Virus record (IMG/VR): IMGVR_UViG_3300011113_000664
Span: 32,001 to 96,000 of that record
DNA from: a virus
Length of the DNA: 64,000 nt
Strand: one strand, 5' to 3'
Each line of letters starts with the position of its first letter. Positions within the stretch are counted from its first letter, which is position 1. This document shows positions 1,067 to 31,146 of the stretch, piece by piece. A program made the translations under genes and the position numbers. The notes under the pieces were generated by a model that saw only the letters and a program-made list of their open reading frames with translations, made no database searches and had not been told where the DNA came from.

Positions 1067-1486
1067 ATGAAAAACTTAGTTCCAACAGAAGCACTTCTTT
1101 CTCTCCTTCAGGGCGATACTCAGTCAAATGGTGGAGAGTTTACCGCACTATCAAAAAGAAGCGGTAAAGACTTTACCTACAAGGTAAGTCGCAAGCAATT
1201 CAACGACAGATGGTACACCCACATCAAGGTGGAAACCAACTACCTTGATTGGCAATACCTTGGTTATTTTAAAGATGGCAAGGTTGTTCGCAAAGGTCAG
1301 GAAGTTGATTCACCTTCAGCAAAAGGCATTGCGTGGATTCTGCACAACATCCAACTTGGTAATCATCAGGCGGTTACAGACCAAGTTGAGGTGATGCACT
1401 TAGGCAAATGTCTAAGGTGCGGAAGACCTCTAACTGATTCAGATTCAATCAGTATTGGATTTGGGCCAATTTGCAGAGCAAAGTAA
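1067..1486 (+). CDS. DUF6011-like zinc-ribbon protein
   Basis: C-terminal CLRCGRPLTDSDSISIGFGPIC motif. Confidence 0.75.
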   Translation: MKNLVPTEALLSLLQGDTQSNGGEFTALSKRSGKDFTYKVSRKQFNDRWYTHIKVETNYLDWQYLGYFKDGKVVRKGQEVDSPSAKGIAWILHNIQLGNHQAVTDQVEVMHLGKCLRCGRPLTDSDSISIGFGPICRAK

Positions 1487-1628: not shown

Positions 1629-1997
1629 ATGAAAAAGACATATGTAATAATTCCGACAGAGTGCAATTCAAACGATGCTTTGCTGCCTCTTTTTAAGAAA
1701 GAAAATCTTACCTATTCTCCTTGGCTGTATTTGCATGGGGAGTTGGAAAACGAATCTGTTCGCTTCGGTGGATGGGATAAGTTTAAATGGTTTGGTGATG
1801 AACCCACTAAGGGTGGAATCTTTGATTGCGTGGTTCTCATTGGGGATGACGATGCAAATATCAAAGTGGTTAAATCCATTGCTTATCTTTGGAAAAGCGA
1901 CTTTGGCAAACTCACAGGTCTTGTGGTTGCAGAGGATGACCAAAAGAGTGTTGATTATGCCCACAAGAATTGGGAAGAAAAGGCAACAATGATATGA
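1629..1997 (+). CDS. Hypothetical protein
   Basis: ORF between promoter and terminator, A/C-rich leader. Confidence 0.8.
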   Translation: MKKTYVIIPTECNSNDALLPLFKKENLTYSPWLYLHGELENESVRFGGWDKFKWFGDEPTKGGIFDCVVLIGDDDANIKVVKSIAYLWKSDFGKLTGLVVAEDDQKSVDYAHKNWEEKATMI

Positions 1998-2002
1998 CAA
2001 AT

Positions 2003-2031
2003 GGGGAAGATTTTCTTCCCCTTTTTTATTT
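2003..2031 (+). terminator. Intrinsic terminator
   Basis: GGGGAAGA-ttt-TCTTCCCC plus T-run. Confidence 0.8.
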
Positions 2032-2044
2032 AAAAATTATATAT

Positions 2045-2107
2045 AAAAAAGTATGGACAAGCTACCTGCGATTAACCTTCCCTTGTGTCGGGCTTCTGTA
2101 TTGCTAC
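2045..2107 (-). ncRNA. Putative small RNA, repeat copy A
   Basis: 53-nt sequence identical to 4425-4477; directly downstream of a minus-strand TGTAAG promoter; no ORF; ends in U-run. Confidence 0.55.
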
Positions 2108-2142
2108 ATCTTAATATATCAAACCAATAAGCATTTCTTACA
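2107..2142 (-). promoter_or_regulatory. TGTAAG promoter copy 5 (antisense, non-coding output)
   Basis: CTTACA 2137-2142, CAAA 2120-2123, 13-nt spacer. Confidence 0.8.
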
Positions 2143-2163
2143 TAAAAAATAAAATAATATTTC

Positions 2164-2199
2164 TGTAAGATTCAGTATGTCATTTGATATATTAAGGTA
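2164..2199 (+). promoter_or_regulatory. TGTAAG promoter copy 6
   Basis: TGTAAG 2164-2169, TTTG 2183-2186; back-to-back with copy 5. Confidence 0.85.
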
Positions 2200-2218
2200 C
2201 AACAAACACGAACAGACT

Positions 2219-2377
2219 ATGAAACAATATCAAGTCGGGATGGTGGTGAGGTTCATCAATCAAGGTGATGACACACCTTACATAGGTAGAATCATCCAAA
2301 TTCGTAAAAACGAAGTTATCGTTTCATACGAAAGGGATGGTTTCAAACTATGGCAAGCCATCAGAGTCACACACTAA
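2219..2377 (+). CDS. Small beta-rich (SH3/KOW-like) hypothetical protein, 52 aa
   Basis: Start moved to MKQYQVG because ATG 2177 lies inside the promoter; YQVGMVVRF...YIGRIIQI pattern. Confidence 0.65.
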   Translation: MKQYQVGMVVRFINQGDDTPYIGRIIQIRKNEVIVSYERDGFKLWQAIRVTH

Positions 2378-2404
2378 GGGAGCAGAAATGCTCCCTTTTT
2401 TTTT
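2377..2404 (+). terminator. Intrinsic terminator
   Basis: AGGGAGCA-gaaa-TGCTCCCT plus T-run; near-identical to 6150. Confidence 0.85.
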
Positions 2405-2413
2405 AAAATAAAT

Positions 2414-2449
2414 TGTAAGATTATCTTACTAATTTGATATATTATAGTG
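2414..2449 (+). promoter_or_regulatory. TGTAAG promoter copy 7
   Basis: TGTAAG 2414-2419, TTTG 2433-2436. Confidence 0.8.
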
Positions 2450-2480
2450 TAACAATTTTAAACTTTTAAACAATAACATT

Positions 2481-2849
2481 ATGACAAAAATTTTCAACGG
2501 CACACCGCACCCAATCAACATCGTAGAGGGTGCAACCTTCAACCCTCAAATCCGCAAATGGGTAGGAGGCCAAGTGGTAAGAGTAATTCCCTCAAACGGA
2601 ATGCTCAATGCCAAAATGAGCGTGGTAGACCTTCCTTCAACCGATGGAATCCCAACCTTTGGGAAATCATTTGAGGGTGTGGATGCCCTTCCCGATGGTT
2701 TTGACATCTTTATCGTATCTGCCCTCTTCTCATCTGCAATGCAGAAAATGGGTGCTGATATGTCAAAAATCTTCACCATCGGTGACCCTGTGATGTCAGA
2801 GGATGGTAACACCTTCGTTGGATGCAGAGGAATCTGCCCTGCTTTCTGA
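2481..2849 (+). CDS. Hypothetical protein
   Basis: N-terminal NGTPHPINI motif, C-terminal VGCRG; promoter/terminator-bounded. Confidence 0.8.
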   Translation: MTKIFNGTPHPINIVEGATFNPQIRKWVGGQVVRVIPSNGMLNAKMSVVDLPSTDGIPTFGKSFEGVDALPDGFDIFIVSALFSSAMQKMGADMSKIFTIGDPVMSEDGNTFVGCRGICPAF

Positions 2850-2880
2850 TACAGAAAAGGATTTAGTTGTTAATATATGG

Positions 2881-2914
2881 AAACCCTATCGGTTATATCG
2901 GTAGGGTTTTTTTT
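2881..2914 (+). terminator. Intrinsic terminator
   Basis: AAACCCTATCG...CGGTAGGGTTT plus T-run. Confidence 0.8.
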
Positions 2915-2923
2915 ATTTATTTC

Positions 2924-2959
2924 TGTAAGATTACCTTACTCATTTGATATATTAAGGTA
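2924..2959 (+). promoter_or_regulatory. TGTAAG promoter copy 8
   Basis: TGTAAG 2924-2929, TTTG 2943-2946. Confidence 0.85.
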
Positions 2960-2975
2960 CAACAGATAAACACTT

Positions 2976-3335
2976 ATGAAAAAGCAATTCGTTATTACAC
3001 TTTCCGATGGAGGGCAAATGTGGGATTTCAAATCCAAATTAGTCATCTTGTCTGCTGATTTTATTGAACTCAGAAGCACTATGGCTGAGTGCGATTGGAG
3101 GCACAAGGCTATGGCTTGCAAGGCTGAATTCTTTACCACCAAAGCAGGTAGGGAAGCAATTCGCCTTGGTGTCGGTCATTCCCACAAGGTGCTGATTTCC
3201 ACCTTTAGTGGGTCAAAATCCTTTCGTAATTGGAATGAAAGGAAAGACCCTACTGCCCTTTTCGCTCACGCACTTGGTATATCCAATGGCGGTGGTTGTT
3301 GGGCAGAAATAACACTTAAAATCAATCAGCAATGA
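2976..3335 (+). CDS. Hypothetical protein
   Basis: ORF downstream of promoter; leader resembles that of the 1067 gene. Confidence 0.8.
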   Translation: MKKQFVITLSDGGQMWDFKSKLVILSADFIELRSTMAECDWRHKAMACKAEFFTTKAGREAIRLGVGHSHKVLISTFSGSKSFRNWNERKDPTALFAHALGISNGGGCWAEITLKINQQ

Positions 3336-3356
3336 TTGGCTTTTTTTAAAATAAAT

Positions 3357-3392
3357 TGTAAGATTACCTTACTCATTTGATATATTAAGGTA
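3357..3392 (+). promoter_or_regulatory. TGTAAG promoter copy 9
   Basis: TGTAAG 3357-3362, TTTG 3376-3379. Confidence 0.85.
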
Positions 3393-3412
3393 CAACAAAA
3401 CCAATAAACAAA

Positions 3413-3769
3413 ATGGAAAATTTCAAAACAGCAATCTACGGAGGCGCAAGTACAATTGTAACAAAACTTAACGAAAAGGTAAGGTCAGGTGACAAAAGTT
3501 GGGAATTGGTAAATATTACCAAAGACCCTGAATACTATAACCAATCTTACGAAGTTCGCCACAATGGTGAATTTGTTATCCGAATTGATAGACTTTACGG
3601 ATTCGGTTTCGGGTCTAATGCTTGGTATCCATATCTAAATAAGGTGCAATTTAAGAAATTGGAAGAGTTGGGTGTTCCTGTTGAAGTGCAATTTAATTAT
3701 CGTGGGAAAAGTATGGAAGAGATAAGTGCTGAAATTAGGGCAATACACGAAATTCTTGAAAGAGAATAA
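3413..3769 (+). CDS. Hypothetical protein
   Basis: Promoter/terminator-bounded ORF. Confidence 0.8.
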   Translation: MENFKTAIYGGASTIVTKLNEKVRSGDKSWELVNITKDPEYYNQSYEVRHNGEFVIRIDRLYGFGFGSNAWYPYLNKVQFKKLEELGVPVEVQFNYRGKSMEEISAEIRAIHEILERE

Positions 3770-3776
3770 ATTAATT

Positions 3777-3801
3777 GGGAAGAGAAATCTTCCCTTTTTT
3801 T
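3777..3801 (+). terminator. Intrinsic terminator
   Basis: GGGAAGA-gaaa-TCTTCCC plus T-run. Confidence 0.8.
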
Positions 3802-3814
3802 ATTTCAATATTTT

Positions 3815-3886
3815 TTATTTCAGTTTGGGTGAACTCCCTGCGATTAACCTTCCCTTGAGTCGGGCTTCTGCAACAATCTTTGCTAC
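3815..3886 (-). ncRNA. Putative small RNA, repeat copy B
   Basis: 33-nt core 3837-3869 has one mismatch to copies A/C; downstream of a minus-strand TGTAAG promoter; 3' end approximate. Confidence 0.5.
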
Positions 3887-3921
3887 ACCCTAATATATCA
3901 AACACAATGTTAAATCTTACA
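3886..3921 (-). promoter_or_regulatory. TGTAAG promoter copy 10 (antisense)
   Basis: CTTACA 3916-3921, CAAA 3899-3902. Confidence 0.8.
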
Positions 3922-4082
3922 ATCTTTTTCAACATTGTCAATACATTCTAATAACATTGTGTATAAACCCACATTGTGTTTACATTGTATATACTTGTCA
4001 AAACACAAACAATGTAAAATAACACACAATACAGAAAGCCATACATTGTCAATACCATTACATTGTCTATCATTCACATTGT
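3904..4082. repeat. Array of nine ACAWTGT heptamers
   Basis: ACATTGT at 3932, 3954, 3971, 3982, 4043, 4060, 4076; ACAATGT at 3904, 4009. Confidence 0.8.
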
Positions 4083-4104
4083 CAGAAATTATTTTAAAAT
4101 AAAA

Positions 4105-4140
4105 TGTAAGATTGTGTATGTAGTTTGATATATTAAGGTA
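4105..4140 (+). promoter_or_regulatory. TGTAAG promoter copy 11 (leaderless)
   Basis: TGTAAG 4105-4110, TTTG 4124-4127, ATG at 4140. Confidence 0.85.
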
Positions 4141-4373
4141 TGACACACAGACCATTAAATGTCATTGCCTCCGAGGTTAGGAGGGATTGGCAAAAGGTGA
4201 ACTATGCAGCCAAGCCTTATTTGGATGCAATGAGTTCACTAAACAGCATCAACGATTCCTATGGATGGGATTCGGCAAAGTCAATAGTTTTGTATTTCCT
4301 TGGCAATGCCTCTACTTGGAAGGGAGAGAAGGCAAAGGAGATAAAGGCTGAACTGAAAGCCATGTGCAAGTAA
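4140..4373 (+). CDS. Conserved-looking small phage protein
   Basis: AKPYLDAM...YFLGNASTWKGEKAKEIKAELK; promoter/terminator-bounded. Confidence 0.8.
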   Translation: MTHRPLNVIASEVRRDWQKVNYAAKPYLDAMSSLNSINDSYGWDSAKSIVLYFLGNASTWKGEKAKEIKAELKAMCK

Positions 4374-4381
4374 GTTTGAAA

Positions 4382-4410
4382 AAGGCAGTCGGGAGTGGCT
4401 GCTTTTTTTT
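4382..4410 (+). terminator. Intrinsic terminator
   Basis: AAGGCAGTCG-ggag-TGGCTGCTT plus T-run. Confidence 0.7.
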
Positions 4411-4424
4411 ATTTTTAATTTTTT

Positions 4425-4477
4425 AAAAAAGTATGGACAAGCTACCTGCGATTAACCTTCCCTTGTGTCGGGCTTCT
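4425..4477 (-). repeat. Repeat copy C of putative sRNA core
   Basis: Identical to 2045-2097; no adjacent promoter of its own. Confidence 0.8.
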
Positions 4478-4499
4478 TCTTTTTTATTAAAAAAAGAAT

Positions 4500-4610
4500 A
4501 AAAAAAAATCCCTCTGAATTTCAAAGGGATTTTCTAATAAAAATTTATGAATGAAAAACGAAAAACGACCAAGAAACCATACCTGCAAAGCAACTATGCT
4601 TTCCCTCTCT
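4500..4610 (-). ncRNA. Putative ~110-nt small RNA (variant D)
   Basis: Minus-strand promoter at 4610-4645; terminator hairpin AAATCCCT...AGGGATTT plus U-run at ~4500-4535; AGGGA-hairpin-GCAGGTA shared with copies A-C. Confidence 0.45.
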
Positions 4611-4645
4611 GCTATACTATATCAAATGACTTACCAAATCTTACA
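4610..4645 (-). promoter_or_regulatory. TGTAAG promoter copy 12 (antisense)
   Basis: CTTACA 4640-4645, CAAA 4623-4626. Confidence 0.75.
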
Positions 4646-4968
4646 AAAAAATAAAATAAATTTTGATCCCTAAACCAAGGCCAGGTGAACCAGGGTTTTT
4701 GACTTTTCCAAATTTATTTTCAAATAACCTTACGCAAGATTTATTTTTTCTAATCCTTTGGTTTTTTGAATTATTTTCTGCATGGCAATTTTTGGGTTTT
4801 TCAGAATAGAGTTTTTGATATTTCCAAATTTATTTTCTACCAAGTTTTTTGGTAACCTTACCAAAATTATTAGAATGCGTTTTCAGCCTCATAACATTGC
4901 GTATAAGACACGATGTGCCTTTTTGGTACTCTGATATCAAAAAAAATAGTTATGCGAATACAAAGGAA

Positions 4969-5239
4969 GTCGCTGATTTTCAATGAGTTATGTCTGATCT
5001 CATAACATAGCTTATCTTATTGGAAATCAATCACTTACGGCTTAGATGTAAGATATGGGTAAGAAAAAATTAAAAATAAATTTTTTTGTTTGATTTGTTT
5101 TCTTTTATACACGCATACACATACGCACACACCACGCACCACATATACTGATTCCTGGGGCAAGTCGCTGGTTTTCAGTCAGTTACAAAATCTTACAAAA
5201 TTTTTGAAATTTTTTCTCGCTGATTATCAGTCAGTTATG
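4969..5239. repeat. Three copies of a TCGCTGATTWTCARTSAGTTA-like motif
   Basis: 4969-4991, 5164-5186, 5216-5239; partial copy 5020-5039. Confidence 0.7.
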
Positions 5240-5268: not shown

Positions 5269-5305
5269 TTTGGTTGGTATTACTTCTTATGCCGATATTT
5301 GCTGC
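5269..5305 (+). promoter_or_regulatory. Bacteroidota housekeeping-type promoter (-33 TTTG / -7 GATATTTG)
   Basis: TTTG 5269-5272, 21-nt spacer, GATATTTG 5294-5301, ATG 4 nt later as in other leaderless genes of this window. Confidence 0.55.
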
Positions 5306-6130
5306 ATGAAAAATCAAACCCCCTCCTCCGCAGTTACCGCAGGGATGCCTGTAACTGCCTCTGTTTCAACTACTTCAGTTGTTTCTGCACCTAAAAAGGT
5401 GCGGAAAGTTTCAGTCGCTAAATTCGTAAAGCGACTTGACCTTTGCCCGATGACACCAAAGGGCTTTGCCAAAAGGGCAAAGACAATGGGCAAAGTTATC
5501 TCCTTTATCATTACACGGCAGTTTCAGTATGCCGTTGATGGTAACAGAGTTACCGCCAAAGATGCCTCCGATTTCGTTCAGGATGGTATGTTGTCAATCC
5601 TGAATGGCAATCAGGTCGATATGTCTAATTTCACCTATGCAGGTGAGAAAATGACACAAGGGAAATTCTTTTCCCTTTGGCTGAAAGCCTCCTTTCAGCA
5701 GTGTCAGCGCAATGACCAATTCGGTAGAATTACACGGAAGTGTAAGGTTACCGGAAAGCGTGAGGTGGTTGGAAAAATTGCGGTTGGCAGCATTGCCACT
5801 ACCGACAATGAGGGTGCAATTTCTATCTCCAATGAGGTGGAAATCAAAGCACTCAAAAGGGGTGCTTCTGATAGCACTACCTATGCTCCGCTGAAAAAGG
5901 TGGAGCGCAAAATGATTGCGTTCTTCAATGAGGCCACCACCAAAGCCGACAAGCGGTTTTGGGCTAACGGCTTGAAAATGTTGCACATTGAGTGCAGCAA
6001 ACTTCCGGCAAAGGAAGCCTGTAAGCTACATGGCTTTGAGCCATCCGCTTACTATGTGATGAAAAAGCGGATGTTGGCTGATGACCGGATGCAGGTCTTC
6101 AGTAGGCTTCGGGAATTGGGGCAAATCTAA
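5306..6130 (+). CDS. ECF/sigma70-like transcription factor (putative phage sigma factor)
   Basis: Region-2-like DASDFVQDGMLSIL and FFSLWLKASFQQ; region-4 HTH-like LPAKEACKLHGFEPSAYYVMKKR; start revised from 5270. Confidence 0.6.
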   Translation: MKNQTPSSAVTAGMPVTASVSTTSVVSAPKKVRKVSVAKFVKRLDLCPMTPKGFAKRAKTMGKVISFIITRQFQYAVDGNRVTAKDASDFVQDGMLSILNGNQVDMSNFTYAGEKMTQGKFFSLWLKASFQQCQRNDQFGRITRKCKVTGKREVVGKIAVGSIATTDNEGAISISNEVEIKALKRGASDSTTYAPLKKVERKMIAFFNEATTKADKRFWANGLKMLHIECSKLPAKEACKLHGFEPSAYYVMKKRMLADDRMQVFSRLRELGQI

Positions 6131-6149
6131 GCCCCGATTGCCGGAAACA

Positions 6150-6176
6150 AGGGAGCAGAGATGCTCCCTTTTTTTA
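6150..6176 (+). terminator. Intrinsic terminator
   Basis: AGGGAGCA-gaga-TGCTCCCT plus T-run. Confidence 0.85.
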
Positions 6177-6368
6177 TGCCCTAATTTGAGCGCAACACAG
6201 CCTACAATCAACGCAGAATTTCCGGTGGTGTTCAGATACCATTTCAACCTTGCGTTTGTTGTAGAGCCTTGCAGATGCCTTAAATCGCATTCATTGTTTT
6301 GTCCTATAAATACTGGGAAAGTACAAATGTAAGATTCGTGTAAGAAAATCTGCAAATAGGTGTTGGAA

Positions 6369-6452
6369 ATGTCAGGGAGACCCCCCTGACATACCCCCCC
6401 TCTGTATCCCCCTATAACACAGCCCACCCACCGGGGGTATAGCTGTGGGGCC
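6369..6452. other. G/C-tract element with hairpins at the transcription convergence point
   Basis: ATGTCAGGG/CCCTGACAT inverted repeat; C6, C7, C5 runs, then G5 and G4 runs, in an otherwise AT-rich genome. Confidence 0.6.
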
Positions 6453-6654
6453 TACATGCATGAATCTGCTACAAAAATTAGTTTCCAATCCCAATAAAAT
6501 TTTGTAAAAAAATTTCATTTTCAATGATAGATAAGACAATAAGATTTGCGACACAATTATTTTTATGTAAAATAAAATGTTTACAAAGTGTAAAATAAAA
6601 AAAACTCTGTGGGGTTTTTTATTTAAAAAGAGTAGGGTGGGTATAGAAAAATTT

Positions 6655-16183: not shown

Positions 16184-16274
16184 TTGGTAGGATGGGATTT
16201 GAACCCATATCATTGTTGAGCCTCTTTTCTAAAGTTTTTTTGAGTCAACCGCTTCGCCATTCAGCCACCTACCA
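16184..16274 (-). ncRNA. tRNA-like RNA with 25-nt anticodon loop
   Basis: Acceptor TGGTAGG/CCTACCA, D arm GCT/AGC, stem GTTGA/TCAAC, T arm ATGGG-TTCAAAT-CCCAT. Confidence 0.7.
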
Positions 16275-16277
16275 ATT

Positions 16278-16386
16278 TGCTTGTCTTTCCAAGCGGTCAT
16301 CTGTTTTCCCCTATTAGCCCAAATCATCAAAGGGGTATGAAATGGATTTTGTTTGGTGCTTTCGCTTTCCACAGAAAACCAACACA
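16278..16386 (-). ncRNA. Structured intergenic RNA candidate
   Basis: GC-GAAA-GC, CCCCT/AGGGG and GCTTG-GAAAGA-CAAGC hairpins between tRNA-like genes. Confidence 0.45.
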
Positions 16387-16387
16387 G

Positions 16388-16485
16388 TAGCCTCGCTAGG
16401 AATCGAACCTAGAAGAATTGCTTCTCTCTCCATTCCTCAGAATGGAATGAGAAGGCAATCAGTATATCCATTTACTTACAAGGCC
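16388..16485 (-). ncRNA. tRNA-like RNA with anticodon arm extended into a long hairpin
   Basis: Acceptor GGCCTTG/CGAGGCT, D arm AGTA/TACT, T arm CTAGG-TTCGATT-CCTAG; 43-nt arm in anticodon position. Confidence 0.75.
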
Positions 16486-16490
16486 ATTAG

Positions 16491-16574
16491 TATCAGGAGA
16501 GGGAGTCGAACCCTCACGGCATTGCTGCCAATGGATTTTAAGTCCATAGTGTCTACCTATTCCACCATCCCGAC
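16491..16574 (-). tRNA. trnL: tRNA-Leu(UAA), no encoded CCA
   Basis: Full cloverleaf, ATGGA-CTTAAAA-TCCAT, long variable arm, GTTCGA T loop; TATATTTG promoter at 16592-16599. Confidence 0.92.
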
Positions 16575-30930: not shown

Positions 30931-31146
30931 TTAAAATCCTAAAGTTTTCAAGATTTTTTTGAAAAAATTTTTATTTTCTCTGTTTTTCAGAGTTTTAAAT
31001 TTTTCAACTTCCTCAAAAATATTCTCAGAGCGAACCTGCTCTTTTAATTTATTTGAATAACCTTTCCAAAATCTCTCTTCTTTTAGTTCTTCCTCTTTAA
31101 GAAGATTGATTTCATTTTGTTCTTCTTTAGAAGTCATCTTTATCAA
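30931..31146 (-). CDS. Hypothetical protein
   Basis: Operon packing. Confidence 0.6.
   Translation of the reverse strand: MIKMTSKEEQNEINLLKEEELKEERFWKGYSNKLKEQVRSENIFEEVEKFKTLKNRENKNFFKKILKTLGF

Follow-up and report, generated by a model that had tools for sequence, protein, structure and literature searches.

Why would a phage carry several copies of one 32-nucleotide (nt) box, dispersed between the small genes of its putative early region? Here, we address this question for a 64,000-nt stretch of DNA (the window) that corresponds to bases 32001-96000 of a 170-kb virus record, IMGVR_UViG_3300011113_000664 in IMG/VR, which is 52% complete by CheckV. Comparison with related sequences leads us to conclude that the box is very probably the core of a real, selected family of phage small-RNA (sRNA) genes. 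As judged from the collections searched, this family is new: it is found only in phages, and neither Rfam nor the host genomes searched contain a counterpart. An earlier sequence-only reading of the window had proposed a multicopy family of phage sRNAs of 60-75 nt outside known classes. Our analysis supports this proposal in that the units are linked to promoters in relatives, two of their hairpins covary and no Rfam family matches them.

The box occurs on the minus strand at 2065-2096 (copy A), 3837-3868 (copy B, one mismatch) and 4445-4476 (copy C) and had no match in 100 shuffles; these three copies had been recognized from the outset, with end coordinates one base too high. A fourth copy, D, with two mismatches, lies beyond the window at genome positions 31032-31063 (minus strand), 968 bases before the window starts. 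Copies A and C share an exact block (2044-2097 and 4424-4477), so that the identity claimed for them stands, but its length is 54 nt and not 53 nt. Copies A and D agree at 151 of 182 positions, a stretch that takes in a divergent promoter pair, and this identity together with the block common to A and C points to recent duplication or conversion. The copies are spaced by at least 570 bp and are thus dispersed rather than in tandem. All copies in this record belong to the first of two subtypes described below (type 1), and no type 2 was found in it. Their locations are intergenic, with the RNA at most extending to the terminator of the neighboring gene. As had been stated, there is no conserved open reading frame (ORF) within the unit, and the loop length varies by 1-2 nt among family members. 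The units of the window and their promoters are the following.

2045..2107, minus strand: small-RNA copy A, minimal transcript, with its start assigned by the +35 rule given below (covariance model 78.8 bits)
2113..2142, minus strand: promoter of copy A, phage-specific, TGTAAG-N13-TTTGATATATT, back to back with a plus-strand promoter at 2164-2191
3815..3886, minus strand: small-RNA copy B, box at 3837-3868, no U-run (covariance model 71.2 bits)
3892..3921, minus strand: promoter of copy B, phage-specific
4424..4477, minus strand: small-RNA copy C, core the same as in copy A over 54 nt (covariance model 79.4 bits)

The genome segment from 12.9 to 36.6 kb (12889-36645) is a run of small plus-strand genes, each with its own promoter and terminator, and judged by this layout these are putative early genes. 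Within it, the phage-specific promoter TGTAAG-N13-TTTGATATA(TT) is present in 37 copies, 33 on the plus strand and four on the minus strand, and three of the latter four precede copies A, B and D. Leaderless plus-strand genes (e.g., 4105 followed by the ATG at 4140) give the rule that transcription starts 35 nt past the T of TGTAAG. By this rule, three of the four box copies begin 11-18 nt past a promoter start site, and the RNAs would start at 2107 (A) and 3886 (B), 11 and 18 nt ahead of the box. The dedicated promoters proposed earlier are therefore present for A and B, but not for C.

The phage has a T4-type portal and terminase, and its nearest isolates by portal are Flavobacterium phages with ~37% identity. 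Closer relatives are IMG/VR contigs with portals 86-95% identical to that of this phage. One of these, the 73.6-kb contig G002 (portal ~92% identical), is collinear with the phage also across the early region; this region has diverged, and the promoter system of the putative early region is different. The G002 promoter has the TAAATTTG and TAnnTTTG boxes of the Bacteroidota host type, and dozens of host-type AAAATAAATTTG...TAnnTTTG promoters lie in its 47-72 kb interval (L072, L073) versus the 37 TGTAAG-N13-TTTGATATATT promoters in the phage studied here. A profile made from the four copies identified five copies in G002, divided two and three between the strands, each ~26-28 nt behind a host-type TTTG-N20-TAnnTTTG promoter. 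A degenerate pattern added two further viral contigs and 70 metagenome loci, nhmmer identified 102 instances, and covariance model R1 gave 129 hits in 55 phage or metagenome sources, with up to six copies per 11 kb; some metagenome loci are near-duplicates, and the hit counts exceed the number of independent copies.

Several lines of evidence from these relatives indicate that transcription is the conserved feature. First, in 92 of 119 distinct contexts, a strict TAnnTTTG -7 box is found at a fixed distance (26/28 nt upstream in type 1 and 27/37-38 nt in type 2), and most of the other contexts are near-consensus. Second, the members in L108 and L136 stand behind a variant of this phage's own promoter (TGTTAG-N13-TYCGATATATT). 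Third, the member in L141 matches copy A throughout a 57-nt core and has a host-type promoter and a different leader. A same-strand promoter is thus retained whatever its type, and conservation independent of promoter and orientation, which would have suggested a DNA site, was looked for in the relatives and not seen. The units are intergenic and occur on either strand relative to local genes, and therefore do not represent antisense regulators, contrary to how they were originally described and unlike cis-antisense RNAs of the OOP/sar type. Outside the close relatives, a 464.6-kb phage (98% complete) contributes a single copy and a 178-kb phage a single convergent pair; in neither was a homologue of this phage's portal detectable. 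The occurrence of the family in unrelated phages with Bacteroidota-type promoters suggests that its target belongs to the host and not to a single lineage of phages. In simpler searches, blastn with 1800-4800 against the phage GenBank collection gave no match, the exact 17-mer core, from which the relatives deviate at one or two positions, gave only chance matches in viral contigs, and the phage-type promoter pattern gave only single chance matches in viral contigs and five relatives, in which another promoter is used.

The RNA has a defined order of elements. From 5' to 3', these are the hairpin P0, AGAAG, the hairpin P1, the unpaired stretch AAGGU-NN-AUCG, the weak hairpin P2 and, usually, a U-run. 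In copies A and B, they are placed as follows.

2098-2107, minus strand: copy A, P0, a weak hairpin of 3-4 bp with a GCAA loop
2093-2097, minus strand: copy A, AGAAG
2090-2092 pairing with 2080-2082, minus strand: copy A, P1, loop GACACAA
2069-2079, minus strand: copy A, invariant AAGGUUAAUCG
2064-2066 pairing with 2056-2058, minus strand: copy A, weak P2
2045-2050, minus strand: copy A, U-run
3870-3886, minus strand: copy B, P0, 7 bp
3862-3864 pairing with 3852-3854, minus strand: copy B, P1, loop GACUCAA

Among family members, P0 and P1 covary. P1 is a 3-bp stem with the loop GA-N(3-5)-AA (GA-NNN-AA in the 7-nt form). It is perfectly Watson-Crick paired in 126 of 129 hits, the remaining three being truncated, and its stem exists in seven compensatory variants (CCC/GGG, CCA/UGG, CCG/CGG, GGG/CCC, GGA/UCC, AGG/CCU and UCG/CGA). 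In the ungapped alignment A3, all three P1 pairs change on both sides; the rows of A3 were picked for a 7-nt loop and a paired stem, and the unbiased figure for P1 is the 126 of 129. RNAalifold alone recovers P1 only. P0 ends just ahead of AGAAG and is variable in sequence and length (3-8 bp). The 53 distinct type 1 leaders fold better than shuffled sequences (mean z -2.4, 85% below -1), and in a subset of 22 sequences, selected by hairpin length class, 94% of cells are paired, with compensatory changes in five of seven pairs, compared to 23-60% in slid controls. The covariation of the hairpins includes strand-asymmetric G-U pairs. The GTAGCAA described earlier in the leaders of A and B is present, but matches the promoter-proximal consensus GT(A/G)TAACAA, which forms the 5' strand and loop of P0.

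AAGGU-NN-AUCG, which follows P1, is invariant and unpaired across the alignment. In total, ~20 unpaired positions are invariant or nearly so, and the invariant nucleotides are spread over the P1 loop, both P1 flanks and the linker. Beyond P1, the division of the family into two subtypes accounts for the mutual information. The sequence-only reading had also suggested that the single substitution in copy B (GACAC to GACTC) is compensated by the 3' flank. This suggestion did not hold up: the change affects the middle three nucleotides of the P1 loop, which vary freely, the proposed helix exists in only 48% of cells, and the change recurs in copy D next to another tail. Among other pairings considered, P2 is paired in 71% of cells in the register 29-32/38-41, where most of the inner pairs are disrupted, and fares a little better in the register 32-35/41-44; candidate long-range helices examined by visual inspection (5' AAGC with 3' GCUU, leader with tail, AAGG with CCUU) are not kept across the family.

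Each unit would be a stand-alone small non-coding RNA gene with a product of ~63 nt, or of ~105-115 nt if the RNA ends at the next hairpin. The T-rich downstream sequence described earlier follows A, C and also D as a T-run in the DNA (U-run in the RNA), but B is followed by A-rich sequence. The next hairpin after copy A is

2003..2021, no strand assigned: terminator hairpin of the upstream plus-strand gene, with a terminator-like score on the minus strand too

and is a possible alternative 3' end of RNA A, giving ~105 nt. Similarly, the 3' end of copy B may be the neighbor's terminator at 3777-3794, which is likewise terminator-like when read on the minus strand.

The two subtypes have the forms AGAAG-CCN...N'GG-AAGGUU (type 1) and GGUG-GGN...N'CC-AAGGUG (type 2) and have the loop, the invariant stretch and the tail in common. 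Type 2 is in a convergent pair in 34 of 37 cases, and 28 of 32 pairs combine a type 1 with a type 2 unit. The 3' ends in such pairs abut or overlap, flanking an A/T-rich spacer. For instance, in L130 (5189-5309), L124 (1201-1323), L112 (1730-1851) and others, a type 1 unit faces a type 2 unit with ~20 nt between them or shared at their 3' ends; the spacer reads GCCC-U6-AUAU-A7-GGGC in some pairs and has no U-run at all in others. The type 1 and type 2 RNAs of one pair may bind each other or share a terminator.

Does the family belong to a known class of RNA? Rfam 15 at gathering thresholds gave only three tRNA matches in the whole window, none at the units, and with E up to 10 on 1900-4700 there were only sub-threshold matches, mostly to the terminator hairpins of neighbors and A/T-rich flanks, none of which aligns the box motifs. 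A search for tRNAs and tRNA-like elements (ARAGORN and the Rfam tRNA model) identified tRNAs only at 16184-16574 and none at the units; in that minus-strand segment, Rfam reports three tRNAs and ARAGORN one (Leu-UAA), and insertions may be present in the other two. With covariance models R1 and R2, no convincing homologue and no multiple or array-like hits were obtained in the 453 Bacteroidota genomes searched. The exact core and the degenerate pattern gave only single chance matches with unrelated flanks in 185,579 species genomes. A match in a 'Verrucomicrobia' metagenome-assembled genome (L082) had no score with the covariance model, and the best cellular hit of the covariance model (L165) is an unrelated chance match in an apparently coding context. 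Similarities to 16S rRNA helix 44/45, the anti-Shine-Dalgarno sequence, 5S rRNA, Cas13b repeats and C/D boxes were dismissed, since the words in common lie at positions that are variable within the family. The copies also do not form a tandem array of 34-40 nt repeats as expected for a type III antitoxin; rather, they are dispersed with a promoter per copy.

What, then, could the RNA do? We suggest that it is transcribed together with the putative early genes, and that, being encoded by several genes with consensus promoters, it would accumulate to high levels early in infection. The RNA would then act in trans, with the invariant unpaired nucleotides and the P1 loop binding and titrating a host protein, which could be a defense, nuclease or RNA-binding factor common to the Bacteroidota hosts of unrelated phages. 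The sequence-only reading had raised a protein decoy or an anti-defense RNA as possibilities. A role as a protein-binding decoy or in a ribonucleoprotein is the mechanism that we tentatively favor while stopping short of calling it probable; it is favored because the invariant nucleotides exceed what a pairing seed needs and because no complementary target was found.

A number of observations weigh against this account or the structure on which it builds. Covariation support is limited to P0 and P1. P2 is weak (3-4 bp), with 75% of cells paired in the register 32-35/41-44, where pairs 34-42 and 35-41 exceed 90%. Single-sequence folds are no more stable than those of shuffled sequences. Tails in 119 contexts have a U-run in 68, an A-run in 18 and neither in 33, and because the U-run is absent from many members, any 3' end assigned is tentative. 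Copy C lacks its own promoter, and the nearest one, at 4618-4645, is cut off from it by a strong terminator. Multicopy bacterial sRNA families, e.g., Qrr and LhrC, mostly act by base pairing, so that copy number does not favor a decoy. The target searches were indirect, having covered Bacteroidota genomes in general. Finally, the neighboring genes differ from copy to copy, and no protein partner was recognized among them. The region upstream of copy C contains the following unit.

4497..4645, minus strand: fourth minus-strand promoter (4618-4645) with a short transcript, adjoining copy C upstream

This transcript has a 6-bp hairpin, an 11-codon ORF (MVSWSFFVFHS) and the strong terminator at 4503-4535, and resembles a leader peptide/attenuator unit with only copy C and no gene downstream; the covariance model did not detect it as a family member. 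At the position of P0, copy C has an A/U hairpin formed from the tail of the upstream terminator.

The explanation that competes best with a protein-binding role, although we consider it rather unlikely, is that the family consists of base-pairing regulatory sRNAs, in which AAGGU-NN-AUCG with its flanking purines would be a seed acting on host or phage mRNAs and altering their translation or stability. An invariant, unstructured stretch of 11-14 nt between hairpins is what such a seed would look like, and a 5' hairpin combined with a 3' hairpin and U-run is the typical layout of a trans-acting sRNA. Qrr and LhrC are similar in having several near-identical genes with their own promoters and a conserved unpaired stretch between hairpins; however, they are cellular and pair with known regulons, while the family described here is found only in phages and no target was found. 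Base pairing would be marked by mRNAs whose sequence complements AAGGUNNAUCG. Elsewhere in the 170 kb of the phage, nothing complementary to the invariant stretch was found. In 401 Bacteroidota genomes, the 13-mer complement had 88 matches versus ~35 for the reversed control, i.e., only ~2.5-fold, and the contexts of 12 inspected sites are unrelated, one being the 'ADEPS' codon string of an ABC-ATPase; no conserved host site emerged from this strict test, which required the exact 13-mer and was made in Bacteroidota genomes in general. Moreover, the nucleotides that are invariant in the P1 loop (GA..AA) and the 5' flank would be superfluous for a seed.

It is improbable that the units lack a function in trans and are selfish or structural promoter-terminator cassettes like the PeSL of T4-like phages (PMC4122927), interspersed through the early region and acting as sites of recombination. 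The early region is indeed a string of small genes, each with a promoter and a terminator, and the similarity of A to D and to C points to recent duplication or conversion. PeSL are likewise repeated short regulatory modules between small genes in a plastic early region (PMC2839356, PMC4122927), and the phage studied here has T4-like structural genes. However, a PeSL is a promoter with a terminator stem-loop, whereas the part conserved here is the transcribed RNA, which persists through promoter exchange: an identical core is kept behind two unrelated promoter types and in unrelated phages, the two hairpins are kept by compensatory changes, and ~20 unpaired positions are near-invariant. This conservation of core and hairpins argues that selection acts on the RNA itself rather than on a promoter or terminator.

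More doubtful still is that the units are RNA anti-CRISPRs (Racrs), i.e., solitary repeat units that mimic the CRISPR repeat of the host, load into Cas proteins and block immunity. Like Racrs, the units are phage-encoded, solitary, small, non-coding and hairpin-containing, they follow directly on a promoter (11-18 nt ahead of the box in A, B and D) and are not beside cas genes, and their dosage could matter, Racrs being also thought to act by abundance (PMC10651486). Pfam scans of the neighboring ORFs detected no Cas family. However, Racrs are defined by similarity to a CRISPR repeat (PMC10651486). Such likeness, which the sequence-only reading had raised for comparison with host repeats, has no support in the 453 Bacteroidota genomes, and the single matches in the species genomes are attributable to chance. 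A 3-bp stem is also short for a repeat hairpin, and the RNA described here has three hairpins and a long invariant unpaired stretch.

The pseudo-ToxI of phage PhiTE is reportedly a phage RNA that mimics an antitoxin and thereby decoys a host abortive-infection protein, and its copy number is important. ToxI-type RNAs consist of tandem arrays of ~36-nt repeats that are processed by the toxin, whereas the units described here are dispersed, each with its own promoter.

Finally, it is very improbable that the units are DNA-level or co-transcriptional elements, i.e., a protein-binding DNA site or an origin with a promoter-driven R-loop primer beside A/T-rich DNA as in T4 oriF/oriG, because, despite the promoter, the purine-rich transcript, the adjacent A/T-rich tract, the A/T-rich spacer inside convergent pairs and an ACATTGT iteron-like array adjoining copy B, the hairpin covariation with its strand-asymmetric G-U pairs indicates RNA structure, the orientation relative to the promoter is fixed, and up to six copies in 11 kb are far above the expected number of origins.

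The surroundings of the copies have additional features. The array adjoining copy B is a dense array of ACATTGT/ACAATGT heptamers at 3904-4095 in the window, between divergent promoters, and G002 too has many related words (ACAATGTT) in its early region. Among the putative early genes of the window, the ORF at 1067-1486 (plus strand) has a C-terminal DUF6011 domain (E 7e-11), the sole Pfam match among eight genes scanned; for the 286-amino-acid ORF at 5270-6130 (plus strand), neither a Pfam family (E<=0.01) nor a close relative in viral contigs was found. In the 465-kb phage (L160), the neighbors are a GNAT protein, a short GluQ-RS-like protein and a GHKL-type ATPase, and the single copy follows a 264-amino-acid GluQ-RS-like class I tRNA-synthetase catalytic domain and a GNAT acetyltransferase (4303-5097 and 6049-6486, both plus strand). 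In Pfam scans, the copies in the 465-kb and 178-kb phages have no common partner beside them beyond a sub-threshold DUF5906.

Altogether, a hint taken from one sequence has expanded into a family of more than 100 members that could now be entered in Rfam. In close relatives of one phage, the putative early region has changed over to another promoter system altogether, yet this small RNA was kept. We know of few non-coding RNAs of lytic phages with a known role and of none in phages of Bacteroidota. It is possible, if somewhat unlikely, that the family represents an undescribed class of phage RNA effectors, multicopy in unrelated large Bacteroidota phages and sometimes present as a pair of two subtypes, that neutralizes a defense or takes over an RNA-binding factor without mimicking a CRISPR repeat. 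The family is, thus, a concrete candidate for an RNA-based factor in host takeover or anti-defense.

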